NCBI GenBank assembly: GCA_963753345.1
Contig: CAVWBU010000031.1
Span: 53,972 to 117,971 of the forward strand
Reading direction: 5' to 3'
Length of the DNA stretch: 64,000 nucleotides
From: an uncultured Fibrobacterota bacterium
Lineage (GTDB): Bacteria > Fibrobacterota > Chitinivibrionia > Chitinivibrionales > FEN-1185
Shown piece after piece: positions 19,582-58,194 of the stretch. The notes below the pieces were generated by a model. It saw nothing but the letters and a program-made list of their open reading frames with translations. It was not told where the DNA came from and did not search any database. The position numbers and the translations under genes were made by a program. Numbering within the stretch: the stretch's first letter is position 1; every line of letters begins with the position of its first letter.

Positions 19582-19766
19582 GGGCGTTTCCCTCCCCCTC
19601 GACTTCGCTCGGGGTCGGGTCGGCCGTCCTTCCGGTCCACCCCTTCGGGTGCTTCCAAGGGTCGTCGGCCTTCGGCCTCGGGCCGCCACGGCCCTATGGC
19701 CCACAGGGCCGGGTCCGGGCGGCATCCCGCTTGGCGGGACCTCCAGTCCTGCCTAACGCGCAGCAG
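19582..19766 (+). repeat. Structured repeat family A, copy 2
   Basis: GGGCGTTTCCC...GGCCGCCACGGCCCTATGGCCCACAGGGCCGGGTCCGGGCGGCA...CCTAACGCG. Confidence 0.9.
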
Positions 19767-19840
19767 ATGAATTGTATTCGGTCAATTATATTTTCCTGCG
19801 CCAATCGGTGACTAGGCAAATCAATCATGCTTTCCTTTTT

Positions 19841-19896
19841 AACCATTCAACGTATCAACTATTCAACTCTTTCTTTCAACTTCTCAACCTCTCAAC
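19841..19896 (+). repeat. Degenerate octamer array (NNNTCAAC)n
   Basis: cattcaac gtatcaac tattcaac ... ttctcaac ctctcaac. Confidence 0.8.
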
Positions 19897-20031
19897 TGCT
19901 CTTCGTGGGTGCCCCCGCACAGGTGTTTGGTTCAGCAACCGCACCATCAAGGGGGACACCCTGGAGGGGGTAGCGCAGGACACCGCAGGCCAAAGGCCGA
20001 GGAGGCCGGAGCGAGGGGGAAACTTCCCCCC
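19894..20031 (+). repeat. Structured repeat family B (B1 type)
   Basis: GGGTGCCCCC...GGGGGACACCC-TGGAGGGGGTAGCGCAGGAC...GAGGGGGAAACTTCCCCCC. Confidence 0.85.
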
Positions 20032-20071
20032 GTTAAAGCATTTTAACTAATCTTTAATAAAGATCAACATC

Positions 20072-21205
20072 ATGAACCAAACATCGAAGCGCCTCTATCT
20101 TTCCCCTCCCCACATGGGCGGAAAAGAAATCGAATTTGTCAACGACGCCTTTGCGTCAAACTGGATCGCGCCCATAGGGCCGCAGGTCGACGCGTTTGAA
20201 AAGGAGTTCTGCGATGTGACCGGCGCGCGGCACGCGGCCGCGGTGAGCTCGGGCACTGCCGCGCTCCACCTTGCCATGATCCTTGCGGGCGTCAAGACGG
20301 GCGACGAGGTGCTGTGCTCGACGTTTACTTTTGCGGGAAGCGCATTTCCGATAACGTATCTGGGCGCAACGCCGGTGTTTGTCGACGCGGAGGAACAATC
20401 GTGGAACATGGACCCGCAACTTTTGGAGAAGGCTGTTTTGGACAGGAAGAAAAAAGGAAAAAGAGTAAAGGCCGCCATTGTGGTGCATTTGTACGGCCAG
20501 AGCGCGGACCTCGATCCCATTTTGGAAATATGCCGCCGGCATGATATTGCGCTCATCGAAGACGCGGCAGAGTCGCTCGGCGCAACGTATAAGGGGAAAA
20601 GCACGGGAACCATGGGCCGTATCGGCATATTTTCCTTTAACGGCAACAAGATCGTCACCACATCCGGCGGCGGCATGCTCGTATCGCCGGAAAAAGACCT
20701 GGTTGACAAGGCGCGCTTTCTGGCCACGCAGGCGCGCGACAGCGCGCCGCATTACGAGCATTCGCAGGTCGGCTACAATTACCGGCTGAGCAACGTGTGC
20801 GCGGCAATCGGCAGGGGACAGCTCGCTGTTTTACAGAAGAGAATAGAGCGCAAGAGGGAAATCTTCGCTCGCTACCAAAGCAGTCTTGCCCCGATGCCGG
20901 GATTTACGTTCATGCCCGAGGCCGTCTGGGGCGTTTCCAACCGGTGGCTCGCGTGCCTCACCATAGACCAGAAAAAAGCGGGCATCACTTCCGAGGACGC
21001 GAGGCTCACGCTTGAAAAGGAAAACATCGAGAGCCGGCCGTTGTGGAAACCCATGCATTTGCAGCCCGTGTTTGCAAAGGCTCCCGCATATGTCAATGGC
21101 GTGTCGGAGCGGCTGTTTGCGAACGGGCTGTGTTTGCCTTCCGGTACGGCGATGAGTGATGAGGATATTGAGAGAATGATTGCAATTGTAAAGAGTGCGA
21201 AATAA
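20072..21205 (+). CDS. Nucleotide-sugar aminotransferase, PglE/EpsN-like (DegT family)
   Basis: LYLSPPHMGG, SNWIAP, SSGTAALH, IEDAAESLG, SFNGNKIVTTSGGG, ESRPLWKPMHLQP. Confidence 0.93.
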   Translation: MNQTSKRLYLSPPHMGGKEIEFVNDAFASNWIAPIGPQVDAFEKEFCDVTGARHAAAVSSGTAALHLAMILAGVKTGDEVLCSTFTFAGSAFPITYLGATPVFVDAEEQSWNMDPQLLEKAVLDRKKKGKRVKAAIVVHLYGQSADLDPILEICRRHDIALIEDAAESLGATYKGKSTGTMGRIGIFSFNGNKIVTTSGGGMLVSPEKDLVDKARFLATQARDSAPHYEHSQVGYNYRLSNVCAAIGRGQLAVLQKRIERKREIFARYQSSLAPMPGFTFMPEAVWGVSNRWLACLTIDQKKAGITSEDARLTLEKENIESRPLWKPMHLQPVFAKAPAYVNGVSERLFANGLCLPSGTAMSDEDIERMIAIVKSAK

Positions 21206-21253
21206 ATAGATAAAAAATCTGGTGGGGGCACCGCGAAATTAAAGCAGAAATCT

Positions 21254-21412
21254 GGGCGTTTCCCTCGCCTTCGCAGGCGCTCAGGCTCGGGTCGGTTCTC
21301 CTTCCGGTTTCGGCCTTTGGCCTCTGGCCGCCTCGGCCCTATGGCCCACAGGGCCGGGTCCGGGCGGCACCGCGTTCCAACGCGGCCTCCAGTCGCCCCT
21401 AACGCGCGGCAG
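21254..21412 (+). repeat. Structured repeat family A, copy 3
   Basis: Same core; hairpin variant CCGCGTT-CC-AACGCGG. Confidence 0.9.
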
Positions 21413-21822
21413 AAGAAATCTTGCTCAGTTGCATGACAAGTTCGCATCTGACTGGCGCCAATCGGTAATCCGGAGCAAGCACGTCCCTGCCTCTGTCGGC
21501 GTGCGACTGTTTACCTGTTCAAGAAAACTGGGTAGTTTTTTGCCACTAGGCTCTTCTCGGTGCCCCCGCCAACGCGAGGCAACTTTCTTGCAGATCAACT
21601 TTCTGGCAGGCATACCGCACGAGCGGCGTATGGGTGCGGATCAGCCGGCGCCTCCGGATAATGTAATATTCGCAATTGTCTAAGGCAGGCGTTCCTTAAT
21701 TCCTGATTTTACTAATGAGACAACCTCAACTCCCCCCATAGATGCTCTCTTATATTAACCTGTGCAGATTCTATTTTAGACAAGCAGACCCGAATATACA
21801 AATAGAGACCTAAAACATAATT

Positions 21823-23706: not shown

Positions 23707-23731
23707 GAAAAAGATAATCAAATAGAAAAAA

Positions 23732-23793
23732 GTTGAGAAGTTGAGAGTTTAAGTTGAGAGCCGATGACGAAGCGTCGAGGAGTTGAGAGGTTG
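23732..23793 (-). repeat. Octamer array (GTTGAGAR)n upstream of four-helix-bundle gene
   Basis: gttgagaa gttgagag ... gttgagag ... gtcgagga gttgagag. Confidence 0.85.
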
Positions 23794-23802
23794 CCGGGTC
23801 GC

Positions 23803-24165
23803 ATGGACGATCTTCGCTTCCATTTGAAAAACTTACGGGTGTGGCAGAAAGGATCGCTGGCGGTCAGGATTTACAAAGTCACCTCGTCATTCCCTGAGGA
23901 TGAGAAATTCGGCATCGTTTCCCAAATGCGGCGCGCCGCAGTGTCAAAAGCTTCGAACATCGCGGAAGGCGCTTCACGATTGAGCAAGAAAGATCAAGCG
24001 CATTTTTCTCAGATTGCGTATGGCTCGCTTACAGAGCTGCTCTGTCAGGTCAGCATTGCAAACGAACTATCGTTTATTTCAAACGAAGGCTACTCGGATC
24101 TTCGTGTCGAAATCGAAGAAGTTTCCCGGATGCTCAACGCACTGCGAAAATCCCAGATGGGCTAG
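23803..24165 (+). CDS. Four helix bundle protein (23S rRNA IVP / Avd-like family)
   Basis: LRVWQK, IYKVTSSFPEDEKFGIVSQMRRAAVS..SNIAEG, IAYGSLTE. Confidence 0.92.
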   Translation: MDDLRFHLKNLRVWQKGSLAVRIYKVTSSFPEDEKFGIVSQMRRAAVSKASNIAEGASRLSKKDQAHFSQIAYGSLTELLCQVSIANELSFISNEGYSDLRVEIEEVSRMLNALRKSQMG

Positions 24166-24231
24166 TTTCAACTGCAGGATTGACGACGAGAAGGGACAGC
24201 TTGTAACCATCTAAATGGATTGATTTTTGTC

Positions 24232-24335
24232 TTCTCAACTTCTCAGCTTCTCAACCATTCAACTCTCAGCTTTAACGATTGAAGTGGTATCATGTTTTCT
24301 CTTCTCAACTTCTCAACATCCTCAACGTTCTCAAC
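24232..24335 (+). repeat. Octamer array (TTCTCAAC)n downstream of four-helix-bundle gene
   Basis: ttctcaac ttctcagc ttctcaac cattcaac ... ttctcaac ttctcaac atcctcaac gttctcaac. Confidence 0.88.
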
Positions 24336-24341
24336 TATTCC

Positions 24342-25125
24342 ATGAATCCTTTCTCTCCTCGCCAAACTACTCCCTGTTTTTCTGTATCCGGTCGGCATGA
24401 GCGGGGCGCTCGGCCTCGCGGCGGCCGTTGTCGCCCTCAAGAAAAAAACAAGGGCCGCGGCAGTGCTGGCCTTTTGCGCCGTAGGAGTGCTGTGGTTTTT
24501 TTCAACCCCGTTCGTTTCATGGGCGCTTGCGAGGAACCTGGAAGCCAGGTTCGATCCGTCGCCCGTGCTGCCCCGGTGCGGGGCCATCGTGCTTCTGGGC
24601 GGGTGCACCAAGCCCGCGGTCCCTCCGCGGAAGTACGTGGAGGTGAGTTGCGCCGGCGACAGGATAATCCACGCCGCAAGGCTTTACAAACAGGGATACG
24701 CGCCCGTCATCATCGCCACGGGCGGCAAGATCGCGTATGTCTACGATTTTCCCGGGTCCGAGGGCGCCTGCATGGCGAGCATCCTTGCAAACGACTGCGG
24801 CGTGGATTCGTCGGCCATTATCGTGGAGGACAGGGCCAAAGTCACCCGCGATCACGCGCCCAACGTCGAGGCCATTCTGCTTGCGCGCGGGATGTCCAAG
24901 GAGATAATCCTGGTGACGAGCGCCATGCACATGTTCCGTTCCGTCAAGGTGTTCCGCAAGCGCGGCTACGTGGTGCACCCGTCGCCCGCCGATTTCACGG
25001 CCGATGCCAGGTTCCAGTGGAACGCGGTCGCCCTGTTCCCGCGGGGCGAGTGTCTGTTCGGCTCGACCGCCGCGCTGCATGAATATTATGGGATTATTGC
25101 GTATAAGATTTTAGGGTGGATTTAG
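24342..25125 (+). CDS. YdcF/ElyC family (DUF218) protein, probable frameshift near 24352
   Basis: AIVLLGG, IIATGG, SEG, LVTSAMHMFRS, LHEYYG. Confidence 0.88.
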
Positions 25126-25129
25126 AATT

Positions 25130-25288
25130 GGGCGTTCCCCTCCCCCTCGACTTCGCTCGGGGTCGGGTCGGTTCTCCTTCCGGTCTCGGCCTCCGGCCTC
25201 GGGCCGCCACGGCCCTATGGCCCAGAGGGCCGGGTCCGGGCGGCATCCCGCTCTGGCGGGACCTCCAGTCGCCCCTAACGTGCGGCAG
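25130..25288 (+). repeat. Structured repeat family A, copy 4
   Basis: Near-identical to copies 2 and 5. Confidence 0.92.
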
Positions 25289-25372
25289 AGGAGTTCTTAT
25301 CAGTCAACTAGCTCTAAATGCGCCACTTCGTATCCAAGGAAACTGATCGCGGTCTTTTAGCTTCTCAACTCC

Positions 25373-25888
25373 TCAACTTCTCAACCTCTCAACTTCTTCA
25401 ACCATCCTCTTTATCGCTTCTTCCACCGCCCGCCTTCTTACCTCCTGCCTGTTTCCCTTGAATAAATATTTAAAGCTTCTCACTATTTTTCCATTCGCGA
25501 TTCCCACAAAGACAAGCCCCACCGGTTTCTTTTTTGTCCCGCCGCCCGGACCCGCCACGCCCGTTATCGAGATCGCGCAATCGGAAGAAAACAGCCGCCG
25601 GGCGCCGGCCGCCATGGCCTGTGCCGTTTCCGCGCTCACGGCGCCTTTACGTGCGAGAATAGCGGCCGGAACGCCGAGCACGCTGCGCTTTGCCGCGTTT
25701 GCGTAGGAGACGATCCCGCCGGTAAAGTAGGCCGACGATCCGGGAACGGCGGTGATGGCCGCGCCCAGCATGCCGCCGGTGCAGGACTCGGCCAAAGAAA
25801 GCGTGAGCCTGTTTTTGGCGAGCAGGCGGCCGAGCTTTTTCGAAAGCGCGGCGATGCGGGGGCGATGTGCGGCCGGGTGGGGTTTCAC
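25373..25888 (-). CDS. CinA C-terminal / NMN deamidase (PncC) family
   Basis: LSLAESCTGG, PGSSAYF, GAVS, SITGVAGPGGGT..KPVGLV; GTG start overlaps the permease stop. Confidence 0.92.
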   Translation of the reverse strand: MKPHPAAHRPRIAALSKKLGRLLAKNRLTLSLAESCTGGMLGAAITAVPGSSAYFTGGIVSYANAAKRSVLGVPAAILARKGAVSAETAQAMAAGARRLFSSDCAISITGVAGPGGGTKKKPVGLVFVGIANGKIVRSFKYLFKGNRQEVRRRAVEEAIKRMVEEVERLRS

Positions 25889-26892: not shown

Positions 26893-27665
26893 TATCGCTC
26901 ATGCGAGTGGTACACCCGGTGCGGCAGGCCGTGCGCGATGAGGTCCACCGGGCAGCCGAACGTGGCGGCGATGGCCTCGTCGTCGAGCACGCCGTCGGGA
27001 TGGTAGAACAGCTTCCTGTTGACGCATGCGACCGACCGTATGTACGACGACACCGCGCCCACGTTGTGCGTGACGAGCACGACCGTGGTCCCCGCCTTGT
27101 TGATCCGCATCATGTGTTCGTAGATTTCGTCTTGTCCCCTGGTGTCGATCGAGGCGGTGGGCTCGTCGAGGAACAGGATCTCCGGATCCGACACCAGCGC
27201 GCGCGCGAGCAGCACCTTCTGGCGCTGTCCGCCCGAAAGTTCGCCGATGCTCCGGTTTGCAAGATGCGACAGCTTCAGTTCATTGAGAATGGCGGCGGCC
27301 TTCTCCCGGTCGTCGCGGGTGTAGGGGCGGAACATGCTCCTCCGGGACAAGAGGCCCATGAGCGCAACGTCGATCACGGAAATGGGAAACCGCTTGTTCG
27401 ACGACGTCTCCTGGGGAATGTAGCCGGCGCGAATGCGGTTTTTCTCCGGCGGCCCTCCCAGAAGCCGCACAATCCCCTGGGTGGGCGAAAGCACGCCGAG
27501 CGCCAGGCGGAGCAAGGTGGTTTTGCCGCCGCCGTTGGGGCCGATGATGCCCACAAAATCGCCGGTGTTGACCGTAAGAGAAACGTTCTCAAGAACGGTT
27601 TCCTCTCCGAACGAGAAAAAGACGCCGGTCATTTCAACGGCCGGTATTGGCAAGGGAGTACTCAT
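26892..27665 (-). CDS. znuC: Zn/Mn ABC transporter ATP-binding protein
   Basis: GPNGGGKTT, LSGGQRQ, LDEPT, C-terminal CPVDLIAHG..H. Confidence 0.88.
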   Translation of the reverse strand: MSTPLPIPAVEMTGVFFSFGEETVLENVSLTVNTGDFVGIIGPNGGGKTTLLRLALGVLSPTQGIVRLLGGPPEKNRIRAGYIPQETSSNKRFPISVIDVALMGLLSRRSMFRPYTRDDREKAAAILNELKLSHLANRSIGELSGGQRQKVLLARALVSDPEILFLDEPTASIDTRGQDEIYEHMMRINKAGTTVVLVTHNVGAVSSYIRSVACVNRKLFYHPDGVLDDEAIAATFGCPVDLIAHGLPHRVYHSHER

Positions 27666-28549
27666 TGCTCCGCCAGCTTTCCAGCCACATTCAGCAGGTT
27701 GTTCTCCCAGTCGTAGGCGAGCGCGTCTGCCTCGAGCACGCCCGCGCCGAGCTCACGGGCGATCACCTCGGCGCTCTTTCGAGAAAACTCCGGTTGCACA
27801 AAAACCGTGTGTATCCGGTAGAACCGAGCGGTATCGATGATCCTCTTCATCATCCGGGGGCTCGGCTCCTTGCCTTCAGCCTCGATGGAAACCTGCCTGA
27901 GGCAATAGTCCTTTGCAAAGTATCCCCACGTCGGATGATACACGAGAAACGCCTTGCGCGCTTTGCCGCCGGCGGCCGAATCGCAGGCAACAAGCGCGCG
28001 GATCCGCAGGTCGAGCGAATCGATGCCGGCAAGAAAAGCGTCACGGTTCCTCGCATACGCGGCTGCGTGAGCGGTGTCTATTTCCGCCAGCGCCGCGGCG
28101 ATGATGCGCGCCTGCTGCTTTACAAGCACGGGTGAGAGCCAGATGTGCGGATCGAGTCCCCGGCCACCGGAGGGGGTTCGGTCGTCGGCGTCCTCGGAGG
28201 GGATTTTCGCGACCCCGCTGTCGGTATGCACGATGCGCATGGCGCGTGAAACAGCGGCAAATTTCGGAAGCCACGGGTTTTCGAACTCCAGCCCGATCGC
28301 GAAATAGACTCTGGCATTTGACAGAAGCGACATCTGGGCCGGGTGCGGCTCGAAGGTGTGGGGGTCGGCGCCGGGCGGAACCATCACCAGGCATTTGACA
28401 AGCCCGCCGCTTATCCTGTCCACAAAGTACTTCTGCGGTACGATGCTCACGAACACGGTGAGGGGTGTGCCTTGCGCGGCGGGCCGGTTGTTGCCGCACA
28501 TGCAGAAGCACGCGAGCGCGGCTGCGAAGAAAAGAGACGGTAGCTTCAC
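27662..28549 (-). CDS. znuA: Zn ABC transporter substrate-binding lipoprotein
   Basis: DPHTFEP, DPHIWLSP, YHPTWGYFA, EGKEP; N-terminal lipobox-like Cys. Confidence 0.88.
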   Translation of the reverse strand: MKLPSLFFAAALACFCMCGNNRPAAQGTPLTVFVSIVPQKYFVDRISGGLVKCLVMVPPGADPHTFEPHPAQMSLLSNARVYFAIGLEFENPWLPKFAAVSRAMRIVHTDSGVAKIPSEDADDRTPSGGRGLDPHIWLSPVLVKQQARIIAAALAEIDTAHAAAYARNRDAFLAGIDSLDLRIRALVACDSAAGGKARKAFLVYHPTWGYFAKDYCLRQVSIEAEGKEPSPRMMKRIIDTARFYRIHTVFVQPEFSRKSAEVIARELGAGVLEADALAYDWENNLLNVAGKLAEQ

Positions 28550-28974
28550 TGCCGCGCCTCCGAACAGCTCCTGCACAGCCCGTGCAAATAGATTTCCTGG
28601 TTTTCCACCACGCGGCCGGTGGTCGCGCGGTCCCATCGCGGGAGCTTCACGCCGGGCAGGCATTCCATCCTGCCGCACTTGCGGCACGAGAAATGCGGGT
28701 GACAGTGTTCCGTGTGCCCGCACGGGCACACCGCGAAGCGCCACTGGTGGCCGGTCGTTTCCATACGGTGAGCGATGTTATGGTCAAGCAGCGACGAGAG
28801 CACGCGGTACACGGTGACTTTGTCGAGCCTCGGAATCGCGGTGCTTATATCGTGATGAGAGAGAGGTTTTTTTGATGAGAGCAACAAGTTGAGGACCGAA
28901 AGCCTGGGTGAGGTCCTCTTGAGGCCGCGGTTAGAGAGGAGAAGAGATGCTTTTGTGAAGGATGAAGGTTTCAT
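28546..28974 (-). CDS. Fur family transcriptional regulator (Zur-like by context)
   Basis: TVYRVL, HPHFSCRKCG, GLCRSC; first gene of the zinc ABC operon. Confidence 0.9.
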   Translation of the reverse strand: MKPSSFTKASLLLSNRGLKRTSPRLSVLNLLLSSKKPLSHHDISTAIPRLDKVTVYRVLSSLLDHNIAHRMETTGHQWRFAVCPCGHTEHCHPHFSCRKCGRMECLPGVKLPRWDRATTGRVVENQEIYLHGLCRSCSEARQ

Positions 28975-29005
28975 AATAAATTTGTAAAGAAATAAAACAA
29001 ATCTT

Positions 29006-29226
29006 GGGCGCCCCGCTGCTTCGCAGCGGCGGCCCTCGTTCACGCTTCGCGCCCTGCGGGCCGCCTTCGGCGGTGGTCTCCGCGCCTCCGGCGCTCCGGC
29101 TCCAGGCTCGGGGCGGCACAAGGCAAGAGACACAATAATGAAGCGCAAAGCGCTATTACTATACCTTGGGGAACGAAGTGACAATGCGCTCCAGCGCACC
29201 TTCCAGTCCTGCCTGGCGCGGGGCGG
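29006..29226 (+). repeat. Structured repeat family A, copy 11 (divergent, with insertion)
   Basis: GGGCGCCCCGCTGC-TTC-GCAGCGG ... ATGCGCTCCAGCGCACCTTCCAGTCCTGCCTGGCGCG. Confidence 0.8.
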
Positions 29227-29291
29227 AAGGGGAAACTTAAAGCCCCCCGTGTCTTTGCCCCAAACGGCAACGCCGGGAAATATAGATACAA

Positions 29292-29308
29292 ATGCAAGTC
29301 AGTTGCAA
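29292..29308. promoter_or_regulatory. Candidate Fur/Zur-family operator
   Basis: Palindrome TGCAA-GTCAG-TTGCA in AT-rich DNA upstream of the fur-znuACB operon. Confidence 0.5.
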
Positions 29309-29350
29309 TAAATTCAGACTGTTTCGTACGGAATGTGTATGGTTTTTGAT

Positions 29351-29394
29351 TTCTCCCCCTTAGCAAGGGGGAGATGCCGTAGGCAGAGGGGGAT
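29351..29394 (+). repeat. Hairpin module C
   Basis: CTCCCCCTT-AGC-AAGGGGGAG-ATGCC-GTA-GGCAG-AGGGGG. Confidence 0.85.
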
Positions 29395-29410
29395 CTTCCG
29401 CAGTGGTTGC

Positions 29411-29550
29411 GTTGCGAAGGTGCGACGACGCGCGAGCGTCAAGCGAGCGCCTTTGGCGCGCACCTTCGCAGGAGGGGGTAGCGGAGGACACCGCAGGCCG
29501 AAGGCCGAGGAGGCCGGAGCGAGGGGGAAACGCGAAGCGGTGCCCCCACC
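29411..29550 (+). repeat. Structured repeat family B (B2 5' stem with B1 middle)
   Basis: GCGAAGGTGCG...CGCACCTTCGC-AGGAGGGGGTAG...GGGGGAAACGCGAAGCGGTGCCCCCACC. Confidence 0.85.
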
Positions 29551-29624
29551 AAGGCAATGTTTCCCGGCCGCGCCTTTACAAAAGGGGGAACGCCCAATTT
29601 ATTATTTAGAGAAAGAAATTGAAA

Positions 29625-30728: not shown

Positions 30729-30786
30729 AGAAACGCCGCCTCCGCGTAACAAAAATAGCTCTTTTACCGGCCGGGTGCCATTGCCC

Positions 30787-31761: not shown

Positions 31762-31893
31762 ATATACTCCTTTAACAAGTTGACAGTTGACAGCATATCG
31801 ATTCTTGCATTCCTTCTTTGGGTCCTCCATGCCCCCTGTAATGATTCACTTCGCTCAAACGAAAATACTTCACTCCATCAAAGGGCACGACAC

Positions 31894-43838: not shown

Positions 43839-43867
43839 TTCACAATTGATATGACACAAGAAGCGAT

Positions 43868-44027: not shown

Positions 44028-44085
44028 AAGGTGATAGCCGCAGGCCGGCAAACATCGGATGATTTACGGTACGTTGATTTGAACT

Positions 44086-44128: not shown

Positions 44129-44145
44129 TTCTCCGCAGCGGTTGG

Positions 44146-44310: not shown

Positions 44311-44381
44311 AGAGCATTTCGTATTTGTGAATTTTCCAGCGAAGCGAGGGAAACGCCCAGCCTTAAACGTTTATTACTCTT

Positions 44382-45554: not shown

Positions 45555-45589
45555 CTGGCGCGCCGGCTATCCCCGGACAACACCCAGAC

Positions 45590-46845: not shown

Positions 46846-47199
46846 ATTGGTTGATAAATGAGTGAAAAGAAATAATGAGGGACATATTGCGTAAAAGGGA
46901 CGGATTGTTAAACAGATGGCAGATGTAAAAAGAGTCCCGTTGAAACCCTCCCCGGCGGGGGAGGGAAGGGAGGGTGGAATACAATAAGCATTTTGTCATT
47001 TCATTTCTTAAGGGTATGGTAATGGTGCTTCGCACCATCCATTATGTCGTTTGCCCTTTCCCAGCGGGATCTAAAGGGCATTCGACCCGACCAACGGGAG
47101 GAAATAGTCGCCCTTTCCATTTCTTGAATTTGATTTTGATTTCAAACTTCTTCCAGGCTGGATGTCTCGAGCGTCACTGCTCATTGCCTCTCCAACTCC

Positions 47200-48150: not shown

Positions 48151-48240
48151 GCGTCCCCCCGGCGCCGCCCTGCGGGCGGCGCCCAGGGTTAATATATATC
48201 ACAGGGGTGATGCCGAAAAAGGCGCGGCCGCGGACGAAAA

Positions 48241-49641
48241 TCAGGCGCGCGGCGTGCCGATGAGGTACGACATGTAGCTTTTGTTTTCCTTCAACCATTG
48301 CCGCACGATGCCCTTGCCTGCAAACCGGATGAACGACGGGTAGAACGACCTGATGTGCGTGTTGCGGTACAGCCGCTGCACCGATGCGATTGCCCCGCTC
48401 ACCGTGGCGTTGATCGCGCTGTTTATCGCATTGGTGTAGGAGTAGAAGTCGCTGAAACATTCGATCATGCCGCGCTGCAGCTCGGTGGCGGTCATCTGCT
48501 TCGGCGCGAAGGTAACATGCAGACCGTCGTAGAAATTCCAGTCCTTGTGCAGAAGCCTTCCCTCGGTGTCAAGCTTTGCATAGACCTCGGTCCCGGGCAG
48601 AGGTGTGAGCACCGCATACTGGACGTAATCCAGTCCGCTTTCTTTTGAGAATTCGGCGGTGGTGCGGAACGTGTCGGCGGTGTCGGCGTCGTTGCCCAGA
48701 ATAAACATGCCGTGCACCATGATGTTGTTTTCGCGGAACACTCGAATTGAGCGTTTGATGTCCTCCACGGTCTGCCGCTTGTTCATGTCCTTGAGGGTCT
48801 GCGGGTTGATGGACTCGAACCCCACGTACACCACCTTGCAGCCCGCCTGCTTCATTTTCGTCACGAACTCGGGCCGCGCCGTCACGTTTGTCCGCACCTG
48901 CGCGGTCCATTTGCGGTTGAAGCGGTTGGCCAGCATAAGGTCCAAAATCTCGTTTGAACGCTCGATGTCGGCGCAGAAATTGTCGTCCACGAAGAATATG
49001 GTGCCCTTTGTATGGCGCGAGATTTCGTTCCACACGCGCGAGGGGCTCTGGCCCCGGTAGTCCCTGCCGAACATCTTGGTGACCGAGCAGAAGTTGCAGT
49101 CGAACGGGCAGCCGCGCGAGGTCATCACCGGTTTGAGCCCGCGCTTTCCCCAGCCCGAAATCAGCGAATAGTCGGGATACGGGAGCACGTCGAGGTTTTC
49201 GAGCCGCGTGCCGCGCACGAGGGGGTCCTTGATGGTCCCTTCCACTATGTCAAGGAACACCGATTCGGCCTCGCCGGTCACCACCTGGTCGAAGTGGGCG
49301 GCCACGTCGTCGGGGAGCATGCTGGCATGGATGCCGCCCACAATGGACCGCGACGGCCTCCCGAGTGCGGCGCGCGCGTCGCGGTACTCGGCCGAGATCC
49401 GTTTGCCGCGCTCGATGGTGGTCGTGATGCAGCTGACGCACAGAAGGTCGGCATCGGCAAGTTCCGTCGGTCTCACGTGCCTGCCCATGATGTTTTCATT
49501 GAAAATGGAGACCCGGTGGCCGGCGGCCTTCGCAATCGCCGAAAGGTACATGGGCCCGAGCAGCGGGATTGACATGAACCGGGAGAACACGTTTGCGACC
49601 GAGCCGGCCGGTTCCACGAAGAGAATTGTTTTCGGGTTCAT
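48241..49641 (-). CDS. B12-binding domain radical SAM protein
   Basis: GGIHA, GEAE, SRGCPFDCNFC, FVDDNF, GFES, LTPLPGT. Confidence 0.92.
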   Translation of the reverse strand: MNPKTILFVEPAGSVANVFSRFMSIPLLGPMYLSAIAKAAGHRVSIFNENIMGRHVRPTELADADLLCVSCITTTIERGKRISAEYRDARAALGRPSRSIVGGIHASMLPDDVAAHFDQVVTGEAESVFLDIVEGTIKDPLVRGTRLENLDVLPYPDYSLISGWGKRGLKPVMTSRGCPFDCNFCSVTKMFGRDYRGQSPSRVWNEISRHTKGTIFFVDDNFCADIERSNEILDLMLANRFNRKWTAQVRTNVTARPEFVTKMKQAGCKVVYVGFESINPQTLKDMNKRQTVEDIKRSIRVFRENNIMVHGMFILGNDADTADTFRTTAEFSKESGLDYVQYAVLTPLPGTEVYAKLDTEGRLLHKDWNFYDGLHVTFAPKQMTATELQRGMIECFSDFYSYTNAINSAINATVSGAIASVQRLYRNTHIRSFYPSFIRFAGKGIVRQWLKENKSYMSYLIGTPRA

Positions 49642-50141: not shown

Positions 50142-50263
50142 AAATTATAGATGACAGAGGTAATGCGGGCGAGTGATCGGGATATTTGCGTATTTGTCCA
50201 ATATACTCCCTATCCTTGACAATACTATATAAATACTAAAAATTAATTGCAACGAGAAGAGAT

Positions 50264-50441
50264 GGGCGTTTCCCCGGCTAAGTAGAGGCGTACGGCCATG
50301 CGCCTCTACATAGCGGGTCGGCCCTCCTTCCGGTCTCGGCCATTCGGCCTCGGGCCGCCTCGGCCCGATGGCCGCGGTAGCGGCGGGTCCGGGCGGCAAT
50401 CCGCCTCTGGCGCGACCCTCCGGTCCGCCTAACGCGCGGCA
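50264..50441 (+). repeat. Structured repeat family A, copy 9
   Basis: Expanded first hairpin GTAGAGGCG...CGCCTCTAC; ends CCTAACGCGCGGCA. Confidence 0.85.
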
Positions 50442-50551
50442 ACGTGAATATCTTATTAGTCAATGTTATATATTGCGCCAAATGGAATTCTCGGAAATGC
50501 AGAAATTGGTTACTTCTAATTAGGTAAATATGATGAATTGTGAATCTCCGA

Positions 50552-50722
50552 TGCCAAGCGCCAGGCAGGACTGGAGGCCGTGCAAGAGCGCGGTGTCGCC
50601 CGCGGACCCGGCCCTGCGGGCCATAGGGCCGTGGCGGCCCGAGGCCGGAGGCCGACGACCCTTGGAAGCACCCGAAGGGGTGGACCGGAAGGACGGCCGC
50701 CGCCGTAATCGGCGGGGCGCCC
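50552..50722 (-). repeat. Structured repeat family A, copy 10
   Basis: Reverse strand GGGCGCCCCGCCG-ATTA-CGGCGG...CCTGGCGC. Confidence 0.88.
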
Positions 50723-50841
50723 AGATCTTCTCTTGAGTTATTAAGGATGATAAAAAATTATTGATTCGGTAGCCCCGGAAAGCTATCTTCTATGGGTGTA
50801 CCTTGTCTCCTGAGAATCTCCGCCAACCAAAAGGAGCGACT

Positions 50842-52437
50842 ATGATGCCACGAATCCTGAGCTGGAGCATCGGTCTGGCTGCCGTTTTCGGATTCCTCGG
50901 AATGCCGTTTGCAGCGCAGGCGGCCGGCGACGAAGGCCCCAACCCCACCATTTCGATGAACGGGACGAGGGGGATGATGTACGTCCAGTCGGCGGAGACA
51001 ATGGGCGCCGGGCGGTTGTCGTTCTCCATCGAGGGAAACTGGTACAAACAACAAGCGGATACGATTCTCCTTGCGCCGAACCCAGGCGCAAACGTCTTTT
51101 CTGGAACGCTGGCGTTTTCCTTCGGCGTCAGTCCCTGGTTCGACGTGTTCCTCCTCGGAAGCGGGTTCGGAATCGAAAATTACGACAGCAGCCTGGGCGC
51201 GGGCATCGGGTCCATCCAGGCGGGGGTCGTGGGGGCGCTGCCGCTTCCGGAAGAGTCGCCGATCCATCTCGGCGCGCAGGTGTCGGTGATCGGCGGCACA
51301 TCGGCCAATCAGATAGACGCCAATGGAATTGACGGATACGACTACTTCGAAACGCGCACCGGCTACGACTTCACGGGCAGGCTCCTCGAGTCGGTGGTTC
51401 TCGGGAAAGAGGCGCTGTCGTTCAAGATCCACCTGAACGAAGGGGCGGTGTTTTCGCTCCAGTCGGGCAAAGAGCCCCAGATGCTGCTCGGGTTCGGACT
51501 GCAGGGAAATGTCCACTCGATCCTGGTGCTCGGGCTCGAGGTGAACTCCCGCACCTTTTTCAAGGCCATCGAACTGGCAACCGATCCGCTGTGGGTGACG
51601 CCGTCCGTCACCTTCCGTACGCCGTATTACATGAATTTTGTCATCGGCGGAGATATATCGCTTTCGCAAGAGAGAACTTCCCCCGACCCGCTGCGCAGCC
51701 TCGAACAGTACCGCATTTTCGGCGCCATTGACTTCACCTTCGACCTGCTTGCCGGCAAGAGAAAGGCGGAGCGGGACGCCAAGGCGCAGGCCGAACGCGA
51801 GGCGAGCGAGACGCAGAAGAAGACCGCGCTCGAAAAAGAGGAACAGGCAAAGAAAGAAGCCGGGCTCAGGGCCGCCAACGACAGCCTTGCCCGGAAAATG
51901 AAGGCCGATTCCACAGCGGCGGCGAAGCAGCGCGATCTGGAGAAGCGCCGCGCCGATTCGCTTGCACAGAAAGCGGTGCAGGATTCCCTCGCGCTGGTGG
52001 ACACCAAGAAGCGGCTTCAGGACGAGATGTCAAAACGCTCCGACGTCGAAAAGCAGCTTCTGTCAACGGGCCTCCTTATCCTCGACGCGGTGTACTTTGA
52101 AAGCGGCAAGACCGAGATATCCATCAATTCGAAACCGTACCTCAACATCATCGGCAAGATGCTGCTCAAGTATCCCAAGCTCCAAATCGAAATCGGCGGC
52201 CACACCGACAACCTGGGCGGGTACGAGACCAACAGGCGCCTGAGCTTTGCGCGCGCCGAATCGGTGCGGCAGTACCTGGTGCAGGTCGCGCCGGACCTGG
52301 CGACCCATCTGACCGCCAACGGCTACGGCCCGGACATGCCCAAGGCCGACAACCGCACCGCCGCGGGCCGGAAACAGAACAGGCGGGTGGAGATGCAGGT
52401 GATGAACAAGGACGTGCTCAAGGAGTATAACCCGTAG
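50842..52437 (+). CDS. OmpA family outer-membrane protein (beta-barrel, coiled linker, OmpA_C)
   Basis: AAGGAG RBS; signal peptide; IEIGGHTD, N..LS..RA.SV, GYG, GRKQNRRVE. Confidence 0.92.
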   Translation: MMPRILSWSIGLAAVFGFLGMPFAAQAAGDEGPNPTISMNGTRGMMYVQSAETMGAGRLSFSIEGNWYKQQADTILLAPNPGANVFSGTLAFSFGVSPWFDVFLLGSGFGIENYDSSLGAGIGSIQAGVVGALPLPEESPIHLGAQVSVIGGTSANQIDANGIDGYDYFETRTGYDFTGRLLESVVLGKEALSFKIHLNEGAVFSLQSGKEPQMLLGFGLQGNVHSILVLGLEVNSRTFFKAIELATDPLWVTPSVTFRTPYYMNFVIGGDISLSQERTSPDPLRSLEQYRIFGAIDFTFDLLAGKRKAERDAKAQAEREASETQKKTALEKEEQAKKEAGLRAANDSLARKMKADSTAAAKQRDLEKRRADSLAQKAVQDSLALVDTKKRLQDEMSKRSDVEKQLLSTGLLILDAVYFESGKTEISINSKPYLNIIGKMLLKYPKLQIEIGGHTDNLGGYETNRRLSFARAESVRQYLVQVAPDLATHLTANGYGPDMPKADNRTAAGRKQNRRVEMQVMNKDVLKEYNP

Positions 52438-52471
52438 GAGGGCCTGTTTCGAAGTGTGGTTTACTGAGGAG

Positions 52472-52504
52472 AAAGCCTCCGCCTGCCTGGGCGGGGGCTT
52501 TTTT
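52472..52504 (+). terminator. Rho-independent terminator after ompA
   Basis: AAAGCCTCCGCC-TGCCTG-GGCGGGGGCTTT followed by T-run. Confidence 0.75.
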
Positions 52505-52640
52505 AATGATGTTTCTTCTGATTATCAAATTGATAAGTTAATTAATGATGAACGACGGTTGTGGCTGTCAATTTTGATGATAGGGCGAAGGAATATGGAG
52601 GTGAAAGTTTTTTCTTTTAAGAAAACGATAGAAAGACTAA

Positions 52641-52802
52641 GAGCTTATCCGTAAATAATGATTTGGGCTGCAACCGGCTGCAAAAACCGCCTGCTTTGTC
52701 AGGCTGCATCGGCGTATCGCCATGTGATACGCCTGCTTCGCCTTTCGCGCATGCGGCTTTTTCGCTCGGTTTCGCCATCAAACCTTATTCACGGATAAGC
52801 TC
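52641..52802. mobile_element. MITE with terminal inverted repeats and TAA target duplication
   Basis: GAGCTTATCCGTAAATAA ... TTATTCACGGATAAGCTC (17/18 match), TAA on both sides. Confidence 0.85.
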
Positions 52803-52936
52803 TAAGCCGTCTGTTAGAAGCCTCCCTTGGGGGAGGTTGGGTGGGGGATTCTAATAAGCATTTTCCATAGCGGGTCTAAGGGCCGGCCAGGCCCTTCCAA
52901 CTCTTGAAATTGTATTTGAATTTGTATTTTAATATC

Positions 52937-53518
52937 TCAATTAAGCTCCGGCACCAGCGACCACCCCTCGTCGGTGCATTTCCCCGTCTTGCCCGTGTCG
53001 CAGGTGAAGCGGTAGTGGATGGTGAGGCGGCCGCCGGCCGGCGCGTTGACGGCCTTCACCGTGTTTTTCATCTGCTTGAGCTTGGCCTCCATCACGCCGA
53101 TGCCGTAATTGTAGTTCTTGTTCTCGTTTGTCATTATCCGGCGGTTGATTTTCTTCTCGTAATCGTCGATCTCGGTGAGGGAGAACAGGCTCACCCGGTG
53201 GATGCCCGGGGCAACCGTCACCACATTACGCTTGAACACCGGGCTCATCTCCACGTCGTCGACGAACACGCGCATGTCCTTTTCCTTGCCGTCGATCACC
53301 GCGCTGTCGATGACCACCACCAGGCTGCACAGCCGCACCGTGTTTTTCTGCGTCTCGTCGGCGCAGTATTTCTCCTTGAGCATAAAGTACTCGAACTCGC
53401 GCTGGCTCATGGCGTCGAGCGGTTTCTTCTTGAGTTCCAGATAGCGAGGGTCGTCGCAGGGACCTTGACAGAAAGCAAGAGCCGACAGCGAGAGGATCAG
53501 AAGAGCAGATGATTTCAC
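52937..53518 (-). CDS. Hypothetical secreted protein
   Basis: GGGAG RBS, GTG start, signal peptide, GC3-rich codons. Confidence 0.7.
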   Translation of the reverse strand: MKSSALLILSLSALAFCQGPCDDPRYLELKKKPLDAMSQREFEYFMLKEKYCADETQKNTVRLCSLVVVIDSAVIDGKEKDMRVFVDDVEMSPVFKRNVVTVAPGIHRVSLFSLTEIDDYEKKINRRIMTNENKNYNYGIGVMEAKLKQMKNTVKAVNAPAGGRLTIHYRFTCDTGKTGKCTDEGWSLVPELN

Positions 53519-54973: not shown

Positions 54974-57790
54974 ATGATCGCAAAGCGTTGTTCAGCCGTA
55001 TGGCTGCTGGCGTGCATCGCGGCAATCGCGTGTTTCTCCGAAACCTACACGCCTGAGACGGGCAACCGCGTCACCATCAACTTCGGTGCCACGCCGTGGA
55101 AATTCGCAAAGGCAAATCCGGTCGGCGCGAGCGATTCAGGTTTCAACGATGCTGCATGGAAGGACGTTGGCATCCCTCACTGCATGAACGATTCCGACAC
55201 GTTCATCAACCAGCAGAGCGGCGGGGGTGACGGGTCGTTTTACAACGGGCCGTCGTGGTACCGCAAACATTTCACCCTCGACGCGAGCTACACGGGCCGT
55301 AAGGTGTTCGTGGAATTCGAGGGCGCGCACTACGCCATCGCGGCGTATATCAACGGTCATTTCCTGGCGGGCAACAGCGCCTACAATCCCAAGGCCACCC
55401 ACGTGATCGGCTTTATCGGGTGCGTGGTCGACATCACCCCGTACGTGCATTTCGGCGGCGTGCCCAACGTGATGGCCTGCTACGTCACCAAGACGCAGGA
55501 CATCTGGAGCGATCCGCATTTTTCGGGAAGCTTTAGGTTCGGGCAGGGCAGCGGCGGCATGTTCAGGCCGGTATGGATGCACATCACCGATCCGGTCCAC
55601 GTGCCGCTCAACATCTACTCGGTGCTTAATAAATGGGGAACCTACGTTGCCACCACGGCCGCATCCGACGCGCAGGCGACAGTCCGCATCCAGACGAACG
55701 TGCAGAACGAGGGTGCGACCGACCAGACCGTAAGCCTCACTACCAAGATCGTGGACGCGACCAGCACCGTGGTGTCGTCGCTCACGAGCACCCAGACCAT
55801 TACGGCGGGACAAACGTATATGTTCGACCAGACCGCCACCATCAACAATCCGCACCTGTGGTATCCCAACGCCAGCCCGTACGGCACGCCCTACCTGCAC
55901 AAGGTTTACCACATTGTAAAGATAGGAGCCACGACCGTGGACGTGTTCGAAAGCCCGCTCGGGATCCGCACCATCACCTGGGACGCCAACTATCCCTATA
56001 TCAACGGGCACCAGCATTTTCTGTGGGGCGGCGCCGGCAGGTACGATTATCCAGCGCTGGGCACTGCCGTTCCCGAGGAGCAGCAATGGCGTGACGTGAG
56101 CCTCGTGGCCGCGTGCAACGGCAGGCTTTGGAGGCCGGGACATTCGTCGTGCAGCAAGGAATATGTGGAGGCCTGCGACGCCTACGGCGTGATGCTGGTG
56201 CAGCCGAGCGGCGAGGGCGAAGGCGCATTTTCCACAAACGGCCTGGCGGGCTACACTGATCCCACGTACACAAAGACGCTCAAGTCTGAACTGCACAGGG
56301 ATATGGTGATCCGCGACAGGAATCACCCGTCTATTCTCGCGTGGGAAGCCAGTAACGGGCCCATAGACCCGACGTTTTGCGATCAGTTACGTGCACTTGC
56401 AAAGCAGTGGGATTCCCTTACCCCGCACGTTCAGGCGGTGCGTGGTGATCCTTTCCCGCCCGGCGACCTCGCCGCATGCACCATGACCGGTTGCGAAATA
56501 GGAGTTAAGAACGCCCACCCCCTGTGCCCGTCGTGGGGCGCGGAAGCGTGGTCGCGGGGGGCGGCGCGGTTCGCCTACGATTTCGAGATCGCCCAGGCCG
56601 AGCAATATGTGCAGAACTGGAGACGCAGCATCCAGAGCAGCTGCTTCGGCCTGGTGCAGTGGTATCTTGCCGAGGAATGCGGTGAAGACGGCAACTTTCT
56701 CGAAGGACTTACAGGCACCCAGGTGAGGTCGATCGGCACCGCCATGATGGACGCCAGCCGCATCCCCAAACTGCTTTACAAAATATACACGGTCGCGTGG
56801 GACACCACCAAGCCCGCGGTGTACCTTGCCCACCACTGGAATCGCTCGGGAAGCGTGCGGGTCAATGCATTTTCCAACTGCGACAGCGTGCGGCTGTCGC
56901 TAAACGGGAGCGTCATCGGAACTCAAGCCCGTAACCCGTGGACAGGCACCGGCAACGATCAGGACGACGGCCAGAACAACATCGAATTGCCCTTTCAGGT
57001 CCATTGGGACAATGTAGCCTGGGCTGCGGGAACGCTCAAGGCGGAGGGCGTCAACAAGGCCGGACAGGTTCTCTGCACCGACCAGAAGGTGACGGCGGGC
57101 GCCCCCGCTGCGATTAAACTCACGGTCACGCCCGCGCTGGTGCGGCCGGATGGAACTGCGTTCCAGATAACCGCGAACGGTTCTGACGCCGCGTTCATTC
57201 TTGCGACCGTGGTTGACGCCAGCGGCGTGTGGTGTCCCACGGCAAACAACGATATCACTTTTGCGGTAACCGCCGGCGACGTGGAATACCGCGGCGGCAC
57301 GCAGGCATATGTTCTTAACGGCCCTCTTACCTTTCGCTCTCCGCTCGATCCTACGCTACAGGCCGAAGGCGGTTTGCAGAAGATCGCGGTGAAGTCCAGG
57401 TTCACGCCCGGTACGGTGACGGTCAGCGCATCTGCAACAGGGCTCACCACAGGCACGGCGTCCTACACCATTTACCCGGCAAAGGACATCATCACCGCGG
57501 TGGCCTTTGCCGCGCGTACTCCGGTTCTCGCTGTGCTGCCGGAAGTCCGCATCGCAACCGCGGGCGGCATCGTGAAGTATTTCATCAGTCAACCGTCCGA
57601 CGTGGCTGTCGACATCCTCAACGCGAGCGGGAAAGCCGTGCTCAGGATTCCGTGCTCGCGGCAGCTTTCGGGGTGGCATCCGGTGCTGTCCAATGCATCC
57701 GGCCGCCCGATCGGCGAAGGTGTCTACTTTGTTAAGCTTACGGTGGGCGGGCAGGTCATGGCGGCGAAGAGAGTAGTGATTGTCAGGTAA
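54974..57790 (+). CDS. Secreted glycoside hydrolase family 2-like protein with Ig-like and C-terminal secretion-type domain
   Basis: WYRKHF, VFVEFEG, LGIR, RDRNHPSILAW, LAHHWN, FSNCD.V.L.LNG; C-terminal GVYFVKL. Confidence 0.88.
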   Translation: MIAKRCSAVWLLACIAAIACFSETYTPETGNRVTINFGATPWKFAKANPVGASDSGFNDAAWKDVGIPHCMNDSDTFINQQSGGGDGSFYNGPSWYRKHFTLDASYTGRKVFVEFEGAHYAIAAYINGHFLAGNSAYNPKATHVIGFIGCVVDITPYVHFGGVPNVMACYVTKTQDIWSDPHFSGSFRFGQGSGGMFRPVWMHITDPVHVPLNIYSVLNKWGTYVATTAASDAQATVRIQTNVQNEGATDQTVSLTTKIVDATSTVVSSLTSTQTITAGQTYMFDQTATINNPHLWYPNASPYGTPYLHKVYHIVKIGATTVDVFESPLGIRTITWDANYPYINGHQHFLWGGAGRYDYPALGTAVPEEQQWRDVSLVAACNGRLWRPGHSSCSKEYVEACDAYGVMLVQPSGEGEGAFSTNGLAGYTDPTYTKTLKSELHRDMVIRDRNHPSILAWEASNGPIDPTFCDQLRALAKQWDSLTPHVQAVRGDPFPPGDLAACTMTGCEIGVKNAHPLCPSWGAEAWSRGAARFAYDFEIAQAEQYVQNWRRSIQSSCFGLVQWYLAEECGEDGNFLEGLTGTQVRSIGTAMMDASRIPKLLYKIYTVAWDTTKPAVYLAHHWNRSGSVRVNAFSNCDSVRLSLNGSVIGTQARNPWTGTGNDQDDGQNNIELPFQVHWDNVAWAAGTLKAEGVNKAGQVLCTDQKVTAGAPAAIKLTVTPALVRPDGTAFQITANGSDAAFILATVVDASGVWCPTANNDITFAVTAGDVEYRGGTQAYVLNGPLTFRSPLDPTLQAEGGLQKIAVKSRFTPGTVTVSASATGLTTGTASYTIYPAKDIITAVAFAARTPVLAVLPEVRIATAGGIVKYFISQPSDVAVDILNASGKAVLRIPCSRQLSGWHPVLSNASGRPIGEGVYFVKLTVGGQVMAAKRVVIVR

Positions 57791-57808
57791 TACGATTTGA
57801 AAAGAGTT

Positions 57809-57953
57809 GGGCGCCCCGCCGCTTCGCGGCGGCGGCCCTCCTTCCAGGCTCGGCCTATCGGCCTCGTTGCCGCCTGCCACGAAGGCCCTGCGGGCAGTGG
57901 TCAGGCGGCAATGCGCTCCAGCGCACCTTTCAGTCCTGCCTGGCGCGGGGCAG
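57809..57953 (+). repeat. Structured repeat family A, copy 12
   Basis: GGGCGCCCCGCCGC-TTC-GCGGCGG...CCTGGCGCGGGGCAG. Confidence 0.88.
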
Positions 57954-57987
57954 CGGAGCAACGCCCGCCCCTGAAGTCGCGGGTGAA

Positions 57988-58032
57988 TTCTCCCCCTTGA
58001 AAAGGGGGAGGTGCCGAAGGCGGAGGGGGATT
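57988..58032 (+). repeat. Hairpin module C
   Basis: CTCCCCCTT-GAA-AAGGGGGAG-GTGCC-GAA-GGCGG-AGGGGG. Confidence 0.85.
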
Positions 58033-58047
58033 CACCTTAGAGAAGGC

Positions 58048-58194
58048 GTTGCGGAAACGTGACGCCCGCAATGCGCAAGCGTTGCGCTTCGCGCACGTTT
58101 CCGCTGGAAGGGGTGTGGGTGCAGATCACCTCCCGCCGTTTTCCGGCGGGAGGAAGCTGCACCCCAGGGGAAACCGCGAAGCGGTTTCCCCACC
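58048..58194 (+). repeat. Structured repeat family B (B2 type)
   Basis: GCGGAAACGTG...CACGTTTCCGC-TGGAAGGGGTGTG...GGGGAAACCGCGAAGCGGTTTCCCCACC. Confidence 0.85.

Follow-up and report, generated by a model that had tools for sequence, protein, structure and literature searches.

BOX elements consist of boxA, a tandem boxB array and boxC, and in S. suis the boxE- and boxF-bounded end modules measure 115 and 133 nt; these elements are described as enriched between convergent genes and as presumably parasitic, yet able to affect co-transcribed genes (PMC3049150). In the present work, an arrangement of a comparable kind was studied in a stretch of 64,000 nt (the window; contig C31, bases 53972-117971) from a metagenome-assembled genome (MAG) of an uncultured bacterium of the Fibrobacterota (Chitinivibrionales). 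Here, a folded module A is followed on the same strand by an internal segment and a second folded module, B, and the whole forms a cassette, or A-B unit, of about 380-550 nt. The cassettes probably belong to a single family of modular, non-coding interspersed repeats that is confined to one genus, is of the BOX/BIME (bacterial interspersed mosaic element) kind and was seeded and then patched module by module. The family was judged to be new, and no enzyme that moves it was recognised; no description of these repeats was found in literature searches on Chitinivibrionia and Fibrobacter intergenic repeats, which left supplements aside.

The A-B units resemble the BOX elements of S. pneumoniae and S. 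suis in having a fixed 5' module, a variable tandem internal array and a fixed 3' module on one strand. Occurrence in one or a few related species, heavy predicted folding, an excess in convergent gaps, slow turnover and the lack of an internal transposase are also common to both, and the S. suis end modules are comparable in length to A and B. However, terminal inverted repeats (TIRs) and target-site duplications are reported for BOX, whereas a TIR was found in 3 of 224 A-B units and a duplication was not readable. The internal repeat is a G-free microsatellite of 7-8 nt in the A-B units and a 45-nt boxB in BOX. In addition, module A is a much larger, covarying fold of eight helices than the BOX modules, and the A-B modules have independent genealogies; the comparison of the two systems concerned their architecture.

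Repetitive extragenic palindromic (REP) sequences, BIMEs and the REPINs moved by RAYT transposases (PMC2817692, PMC3337134) are likewise high-copy, extragenic, structured repeats that form mosaics with ordered motifs and for which single-strand folding is plausible. REPs are single palindromes of 20-40 nt in alternating or inverted order, whereas the A-B modules are multi-hairpin structures of 130-165 nt in direct order. The source genome had no Y1/RAYT gene, and the Y1 genes of sister species were not flanked by A or B. The A-B units unite three features that are rarely combined: a BOX-like fixed order, modules that are large and covary on one strand at the level expected of RNA, and module-wise exchange without a recognisable transposase. 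Knowledge of how they spread or exchange, if it could be gained, would help with an old question, namely how mosaics of the REP, BIME and BOX type arise and stay uniform.

Order, anatomy and folding of the A-B units

The source MAG (G000; 4.5 Mb, 55.9% GC, 94% complete) contained about 180 kb of redundant sequence in the form of strain-haplotype contigs overlapping at 90-99.9% identity. These contigs served as natural allelic comparisons, and 180,151 redundant bases were removed before the non-redundant counts were made. Profile searches of this genome gave 410 A, 281 B1, 50 B2 and 32 C matches, where B1 and B2 are two forms of module B and C is a further module. The non-redundant inventory comprised 215 A-B units together with 179 A and 85 B copies that were solo, and the units were estimated from these counts and typical module lengths to make up roughly 3% of the genome. 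For the 394 non-redundant A copies, the nearest B within 800 nt lay downstream on the same strand in 214 cases, upstream on the same strand in 5 and on the opposite strand in 3, and 172 copies had none. The canonical order was thus present in 214 of the 222 A copies with a nearby B, far above the expectation for four equally likely arrangements, with a median A-to-B gap of 123 nt. In other named MAGs of Fibrobacterota or Chitinivibrionales (28 loci), 18 of the 19 A-B neighbours within 300 nt were canonical. Therefore, the fixed order that a preliminary description had noticed at six loci of the window was found to be strongly non-random throughout the genome.

Only 8 of 498 units overlapped a called gene, and copies differed from one another by single-base insertions or deletions. 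A coding reading was considered and rejected, since none of the four unit-spanning open reading frames (ORFs) matched Pfam. The units were shown to be non-autonomous, non-coding and located almost only between genes. In this genus of uncultured Fibrobacterota from peat and sediment, many of the intervals separating housekeeping genes are filled by them.

It is hardly credible that this pattern arose artificially, through repeats that were collapsed or made chimeric when the metagenome was assembled or binned. The MAG does contain 180 kb of redundant strain-variant contigs, 19 units lay within 300 nt of one of its 110 contig ends, and public short-read contigs covering positions 27001-47000 of the window broke at units. 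However, five species of the genus had the same architecture in the interior of long contigs, as did named MAGs from independent assemblies, the unit flanks were unique, syntenic genes, and removal of the redundancy only shifted the number of A-B units from 224 to 215. In practical terms, the units break short-read assemblies, and masking is advised when these MAGs are annotated.

The consensus of 91 A-B1 units was unbroken from the leader through the tail of B and ran in the order A-rich leader, module A, linker, short variable stretch, (Y)CAAC array, module B1 and A/T-rich tail. Module A (about 165 nt) begins with TGGGCG(TT/CC)CC and ends with CT(AA/GG)CGCGCGGCAG. The linker has the consensus GAATTCTATTCAGTCAATT..TTCTCGCGCCAATCGG and is followed by the array, which is G-free and has a period of 7-8 nt. 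Module B1 is about 130 nt long; in about one unit in nine, a short spacer followed by C and B2 is present instead. It had been stated that the spacers were otherwise unrelated in sequence and might hold exchangeable cargo. The first statement was wrong, as a conserved linker and array were common to the spacers, and what had been taken for cargo was either this conserved interior or C.

The pentanucleotide TCAAC occurred in 176 of 224 spacers and its complement GTTGA in 10 of 224. Arrays of at least three (Y)CAAC repeats were present in 97 of 198 A-B1 units and in 1 of 26 A-B2 units. Genome-wide, 230 such arrays were found, against none in a 2-Mb shuffle: 106 were inside A-B units, 26 followed a solo A, 13 preceded a solo B, 84 were intergenic without a nearby module and 1 was in a gene. 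All 145 arrays adjoining a module were on the strand of that module. Module C was located directly 5' of 32 of 39 B2 copies and of none of 269 B1 copies, in agreement with its position immediately before B in all three B2 cassettes of the window. C is thus the 5' part of an alternative 3' partner, C + B2. Because the middle of B2 at 29469-29531 was 95% complementary to the minus-strand B1 at 38617-38679, that is, about 95% identical in sense, B is a mosaic too.

The first hairpin of A was hypervariable throughout the genome: the 264 anchored copies comprised 182 different versions, and 33 different regions measured at least 45 nt (e.g. C10:1668, C15:76149, C26:127197). Some of the long versions were palindromes, perfect or nearly so, whose sequences differed widely and were often of the GTAGAG...CTCTAC type, and others contained a second, nested A start. 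These variants look like nested palindromic inserts.

The covariance model of A was built from 11 window copies; with it, 70 copies were recovered from the window together with loci of other species. In the A fold, which consists of eight helices closed by a terminal stem, 92.9% of cells were paired, compared with 81.1% in shuffles and 34-48% when partners were slid; 25 of 36 pairs changed on both sides, and none of 500 shuffles reached any of these measures. The closing stem covaried, giving TT/AA and CC/GG subtypes, and G-U pairs outnumbered A-C pairs by 140 to 58 in an alignment that was itself fitted on the A-to-B strand. Alignment of 240 A copies by hmmalign followed by RNAalifold had given a poor fold, and the covariance-model alignment was used instead. 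In B1, a long P1 hairpin is followed by AGGAGGGGG, which does not vary, then by a middle domain into which a variable hairpin is inserted, and finally by the terminal hairpin, GGGGGAnACyTCCCCC, which is likewise invariant. Among 90 copies, 99.2% of its cells were paired, compared with 67-74% when slid, and U-G pairs were frequent; across species, 5 of 19 pairs showed double changes. Both A and B therefore fold on the strand where A precedes B. This covariation shows single-strand folding, which need not mean an RNA.

The pronounced folding of both modules on one strand, in which G-U pairs are conserved and changes compensate each other, would nevertheless be expected if the units were functional RNA elements under selection, either small-RNA genes or cis-acting terminators, insulators or stabilisers, with spread being secondary. 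The invariant single-stranded motif AGGAGGGGG and the invariant terminal hairpin, the distance of 26-40 nt between the outer ends and gene 3' ends, and the biased orientation relative to genes also point in this direction. This explanation is quite improbable. Promoter-like bases were not conserved 19-40 nt upstream of A, where the commonest base was found in at most 132 of 309 copies; sites in sister species were empty where the genes were 18-35 nt apart; the same site took either orientation and either type; and one 99%-complete species of the genus, as well as all other genera searched, had no units. Moreover, about 480 copies is, to our knowledge, far above any known regulatory RNA family. 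Sigma-70 promoter-like sites numbered 13 against 6.1 expected and intrinsic terminators matched the shuffle expectation, neither of them aligning with the units. At gathering thresholds, Rfam gave no matches in the window, and only chance-level ones were obtained on two units at E up to 10.

Exchange of modules and turnover of sites

Distances between A copies and between their B partners were found to be uncorrelated in 167 non-redundant A-B1 units (Mantel r 0.002, permutation sd 0.016), while the thirds of A correlated mutually (r 0.21-0.35, z 10-24). Linker and array correlated with each other (r 0.24, z 5.3), and A did not correlate with linker, array or B (r -0.02 to 0.05). The two halves of B were uncorrelated as well (r 0.02). 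The closing-stem subtype of A and the P1 subtype of B1 assorted freely (86/30 vs 16/5, p = 1). The 14 closest non-redundant A pairs were 2-5% apart, but their B modules were 21-39% apart and their linkers, mostly unrelated, 21-52% apart; the closest B pairs showed the reverse pattern.

Exchange was most directly indicated by two haplotypes, C44 and C46, which were 98-100% identical in both flanking genes, A, linker and array and differed in the interior of B, most of B having been replaced on its own. The replaced segment began with the 3' strand of P1, included a tail of 24 nt and stopped at the stop codon of the neighbouring gene. These haplotypes also differed in the presence of the optional 27-nt hairpin inside A. 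It was thus shown that the modules, rather than the whole unit, are the pieces copied.

The preliminary description had regarded A and B as two ends of one unit, which would have dependent orientations and would not be gained and lost apart. The first part held: the orientations were strongly dependent, and a non-coding composite of about 380-550 nt recurs in which A forms the 5' part and B the 3' part. As a mode of spread, the proposal did not hold, since A and B were exchanged separately, as is also seen from orthologous sites of sister species that had C-B2 but no A, or just an array. The other possibility named in the preliminary description, a targeting of the modules by one another, may therefore still apply.

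A somewhat unlikely explanation, and the main rival, is that A, B and the linker-array piece are separately mobile modules that dock at specific junctions, A on the 5' side of a linker and B immediately after a (Y)CAAC array, so that the fixed order would come from targeted insertion without a shared parent unit. Docking agrees with the finding that A and B have independent genealogies and that similarity breaks off sharply where A meets the linker (A pairs 2-5% and linkers 21-52% apart), as it does with the covariation of linker and array with each other and with neither A nor B. Partial forms are common: besides the solo modules, 84 arrays were free of modules, 26 followed a solo A and 13 preceded a solo B. 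A stub of an A start was present directly 5' of a complete leader and A in all six loci examined, and CC-type A was solo or paired with B2 more often than TT-type A (chi-square 28, p 7e-7). However, in the sole allelic replacement observed the boundary was inside B, between the P1 strands and off any module edge. Solo A and solo B at 800-6000 nt from each other were in canonical order in 10 cases and in other arrangements in 25; targeting would therefore need to act over a very short range, and the idea that such separated pairs form one unit was not borne out. Searches of G000 did not find an enzyme for docking, and short-tract gene conversion within homologous blocks predicts the same statistics.

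A more elaborate form of docking, considered unlikely, takes A, the linker-array piece and B as three single-strand-folded modules that propagate separately and are docked in fixed order by an enzyme other than RAYT/TnpA, TnpB or a reverse transcriptase, with the same arrays in inverted pairs bracketing small gene cassettes (e.g. that of the 23S-rRNA-intervening-sequence-protein (IVP) gene at 23707-24352). If true, this would represent a new kind of self-assembling mobile DNA with microsatellite-like arrays as landing pads.

The distribution of A was examined across genomes. Strong matches were found in five of six genomes of the genus and in neither of two genomes of other genera in the family; two of 73 other genomes of the order had marginal single matches (E about 8e-6). 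One 99%-complete species of the genus had no A. A pattern derived from A was recurrent only in records of Fibrobacterota, Chitinivibrionales or Chitinispirillum, and elsewhere gave single chance matches in GC-rich genomes. The repeat family is thus restricted to one genus of uncultured peat and sediment bacteria.

Comparison of orthologous loci in G001, the species nearest to G000, and in the sister species G002, G004 and G005 demonstrated that units were gained or lost between species, as had been anticipated. Between manC and lpxB (43838-44382), G000 had A-C-B2 on the plus strand, G001 and G005 had A-array-B1 on the minus strand, and G002 and G004 had no unit, the genes being 18 and 35 nt apart. 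At 38539-39029, G000 had A-B1 (minus strand), G004 had A-C-B2 (plus strand), G005 had C-B2 (plus strand) without A, and in G002 the A-B1 arrangement was split by nested insertion sequence (IS) insertions. At 34056-34428 and 35180-35883, both A and B were absent from G002 and G004; at the former site, G004 retained just a four-repeat array beside a stop codon. These findings show that, on the time scale of species divergence, units enter intergenic sites and are lost from them, and that they may lie there in either orientation. Which mosaic fills a given intergenic site also varies by species in REP/BIME repeats. No presence/absence differences of units were found between the redundant strain contigs of G000, and in the comparison of G000 with G001 at 17722 the downstream sequences simply differed.

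The G002 locus (C28, about 43900-48400) contained IS5-like and IS4-like transposase genes nested within A...B1, parting A from B by 3.2 kb. The IS copies in this unit are later insertions and therefore not the parent IS.

Mode of spread and position relative to genes

No recurrent parent element, in which A and B enclose an ORF, was found in G000, although its existence had been suggested; pairs of solo A and solo B within 8 kb enclosed unrelated genes of many sizes. At one locus in another MAG, a lipoprotein gene was located between linker and array, and this was treated as an exception. The prediction that a mobilising enzyme is not encoded in the window was upheld. The single IS110 gene of G000 was at a contig end, away from any unit. 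Y1 genes (PF01797) were present in G002, G004 and G005 with no A, B or C within their loci, and the ends and flanks of the IS200 copies of G002 were unrelated to the modules.

Known classes of mobile DNA were compared with the units on this basis. Miniature inverted-repeat transposable elements (MITEs) are likewise short non-coding elements that occur in abundance between genes and may be present in one relative and absent from another. Unlike in MITEs, a regular TIR, a readable duplication and a matching parent IS were not found for the A-B units, the ends were asymmetric and the structure was strand-specific. Elements derived from IS200/IS605, including those with omega-RNA ends, share with the units asymmetric ends with nearby hairpins, strand specificity and an orientation bias with respect to replication or genes, as well as a module that abuts a short specific pentanucleotide (B after TCAAC). 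However, TnpA and TnpB were not found in G000, the IS200 ends in G002 were unrelated, and an Rfam match was lacking. As for repeats derived from retroelements (group II intron, retron or SINE-like), no reverse transcriptase was found in G000, and a group II D1-D4 match reached 17 bits compared with a gathering score of 36.

The location of the non-redundant A-B units relative to genes was determined with a home-made gene caller, by which 77% of G000 was coding. By their flanks, 79 units were co-directional antisense, 54 convergent, 40 divergent and 35 co-directional sense. Convergent gaps accounted for 54 of 208 unit sites (26%), compared with 309 of 2066 intergenic gaps overall (15%). The 3' end of B and the 5' end of A lay at a median of 26-40 nt from gene ends. 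Unit orientation opposed the local gene-strand bias (odds ratio 0.14, p 5e-5), and it was likewise opposite to GC skew (odds ratio 0.33, p 0.007).

For the probable reading of a seeded and patched repeat family, the following mechanism may be proposed. New sites would be seeded by an enzyme acting on the single-stranded, folded A-to-B strand. Existing copies would then undergo constant patching with sequence from other copies, either through ectopic gene conversion of short tracts or through replacement of modules, and such patching could keep the architecture fixed while the genealogies of A and B uncouple. Selection might remove copies lying in operon sense, in which the mRNA would carry a C-rich, G-free tract and very stable hairpins; the 79:35 excess of antisense over sense units among those flanked by co-directional genes would be explained by selection against sense units. 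This C-rich tract resembles a Rho-binding (rut) site, a putative assignment.

Several points weigh against this reading. A target-site duplication was not visible at the junctions read, and no filled and empty A-B pair was similar enough for exact junctions, the flanking genes in the empty-site species being only 70-80% identical. A regular TIR was lacking; the inverted A start after B was detected in the 3 of 224 units by a pattern that misses the copy at 44340-44355. Y1 transposase (PF01797), the TnpB zinc ribbon and reverse transcriptase (PF00078) had no matches in G000. The segment replaced between C44 and C46 enters 24 nt of seemingly unique flank, which is hard to reconcile with plain homologous conversion. 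The gene-orientation figures rest on a crude gene caller, and the rut-like reading and RNA-level effects are predictions from sequence. Finally, the missing A-B correlation could come partly from star-like descent of a few master copies. Because the halves of B were also uncorrelated, the subtype table and the closest-pair lists carry most weight, and these argue for real exchange.

Copies and neighbouring features in the window

The window contained 13 A copies, seven of them solo, and seven B copies; A copies were scored by cmsearch, and B and C by profile search. All six A-before-B cassettes of the preliminary description were recovered, four on the plus and two on the minus strand, and an array lay between A and B in two of the three B1 cassettes (19581-20031 and 35269-35762), as had been described. 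The flanking genes were ordinary and encoded a sugar transferase, a DegT aminotransferase, ManC, LpxB, two GH2 hydrolases, an SDR, a Ser/Thr kinase and a pseudouridine synthase. No tRNA or tmRNA was found.

The cassette at 19581-20031 (plus strand), identified from the sequence and profile matches, was of the A-array-B1 type. Its eight-helix module A, with the optional 27-nt insert, occupied 19581-19769 (150 bits), and the conserved linker followed by the TCAAC array (19847-19900) occupied 19770-19902. Module B1 at 19903-20031 contained the P1 hairpin, AGGAGGGGG, the middle domain and the terminal GGGGGAAACTTCCCCC hairpin. The second cassette of this type, at 35269-35762 on the minus strand, had its module A at 35615-35762. 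The segment 35269-35545 held a (Y)CAAC array (about 35500-35545), an extra insert and then B1 (35269-35425), and a truncated stub of an A start was present before A at about 35790-35806. The third B1 cassette, at 38609-38989 (minus strand), consisted of A at 38825-38989 (140 bits) and B1 at 38609-38740.

Truncated A starts of 20-60 nt were located directly 5' of a complete leader-A-linker-array-B1 unit at six loci, namely 35790-35806 of the window (minus strand), C19:18018, C16:247496, C16:113773, C23:54853 and C21:228777. The remainder of the old A was absent after the unit in all six.

The three A-C-B2 cassettes were on the plus strand. The one at 29005-29553 had a degenerate module A (29005-29229) with internal insertions, which was recognised by cmsearch at 46 bits and by alignment and was followed by C (29345-29460) and B2 (29460-29553), which together occupied 29345-29553. 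An inverted copy of the A start (GGGGGAACGCCCAA) was present at 29588-29600 on the minus strand, and this was the only one of 26 A-B2 units to match by the pattern used. Synteny broke at the stretch 29004-29600 with this unit: in G002, G004 and G005, the block on one side of it and the block on the other were on different contigs. Between manC and lpxB, the cassette at 43867-44313 had A at 43867-44030 (161 bits) and C + B2 at 44080-44313, with an inverted A start after it at 44340-44355. The cassette at 57808-58197 had an A of the CC/GG closing-stem subtype at 57808-57956 (121 bits) and C + B2 at 57982-58197. It sat at the junction of a duplication of GH2 genes: the two genes (54974-61137) were tandem paralogues about 71% identical, and both mapped to one G002 gene.

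Solo A copies were identified by cmsearch at 17767-17928, 21253-21415 and 63787-63933 on the plus strand. At 25129-25406 (plus strand), A was followed by the linker and a TCAAC array (25357-25406) without B, and at 34087-34424 (plus strand) by the linker and long TCAAC arrays (34303-34424), also without B. Two further solo A copies were convergent, one at 50263-50445 on the plus strand with a partly degenerate 5' end and the other at 50548-50723 on the minus strand. A solo B1 without A was present at 37234-37345 on the minus strand, antisense to and downstream of the citrate synthase gene. This gene reads as two overlapping ORFs (35883-36869 and 36814-37203), and a public contig (run X1) was one base shorter at 36796; there may be a MAG error or a frameshift variant at that position. 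In the gap 52437-52937, an inverted repeat of 58 nt, 72% complementary and with 54 nt between the arms, was found at 52637-52806 and was unrelated to A or B.

An insertion of about 646 nt was detected at 23707-24352; it was missing from G001, in which the flanking genes meet as TGAtATG. It contained an A-rich leader, GTTGA arrays, a 23S-rRNA-IVP gene (PF05635, E 7e-34) and long TCAAC arrays, so that inverted arrays bracket the cassette. The same inverted-array bracket was present at the second of the three 23S-rRNA-IVP genes in G000 (C28:46779-47018). In addition, small intergenic elements were found in which a GTTGA array is separated from a following TCAAC array by 50-150 nt of unrelated sequence (e.g. 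C36:11788-11888, C32:76742-76845, C35:217058-217207); there were 15 of these, compared with 4 in the opposite arrangement.

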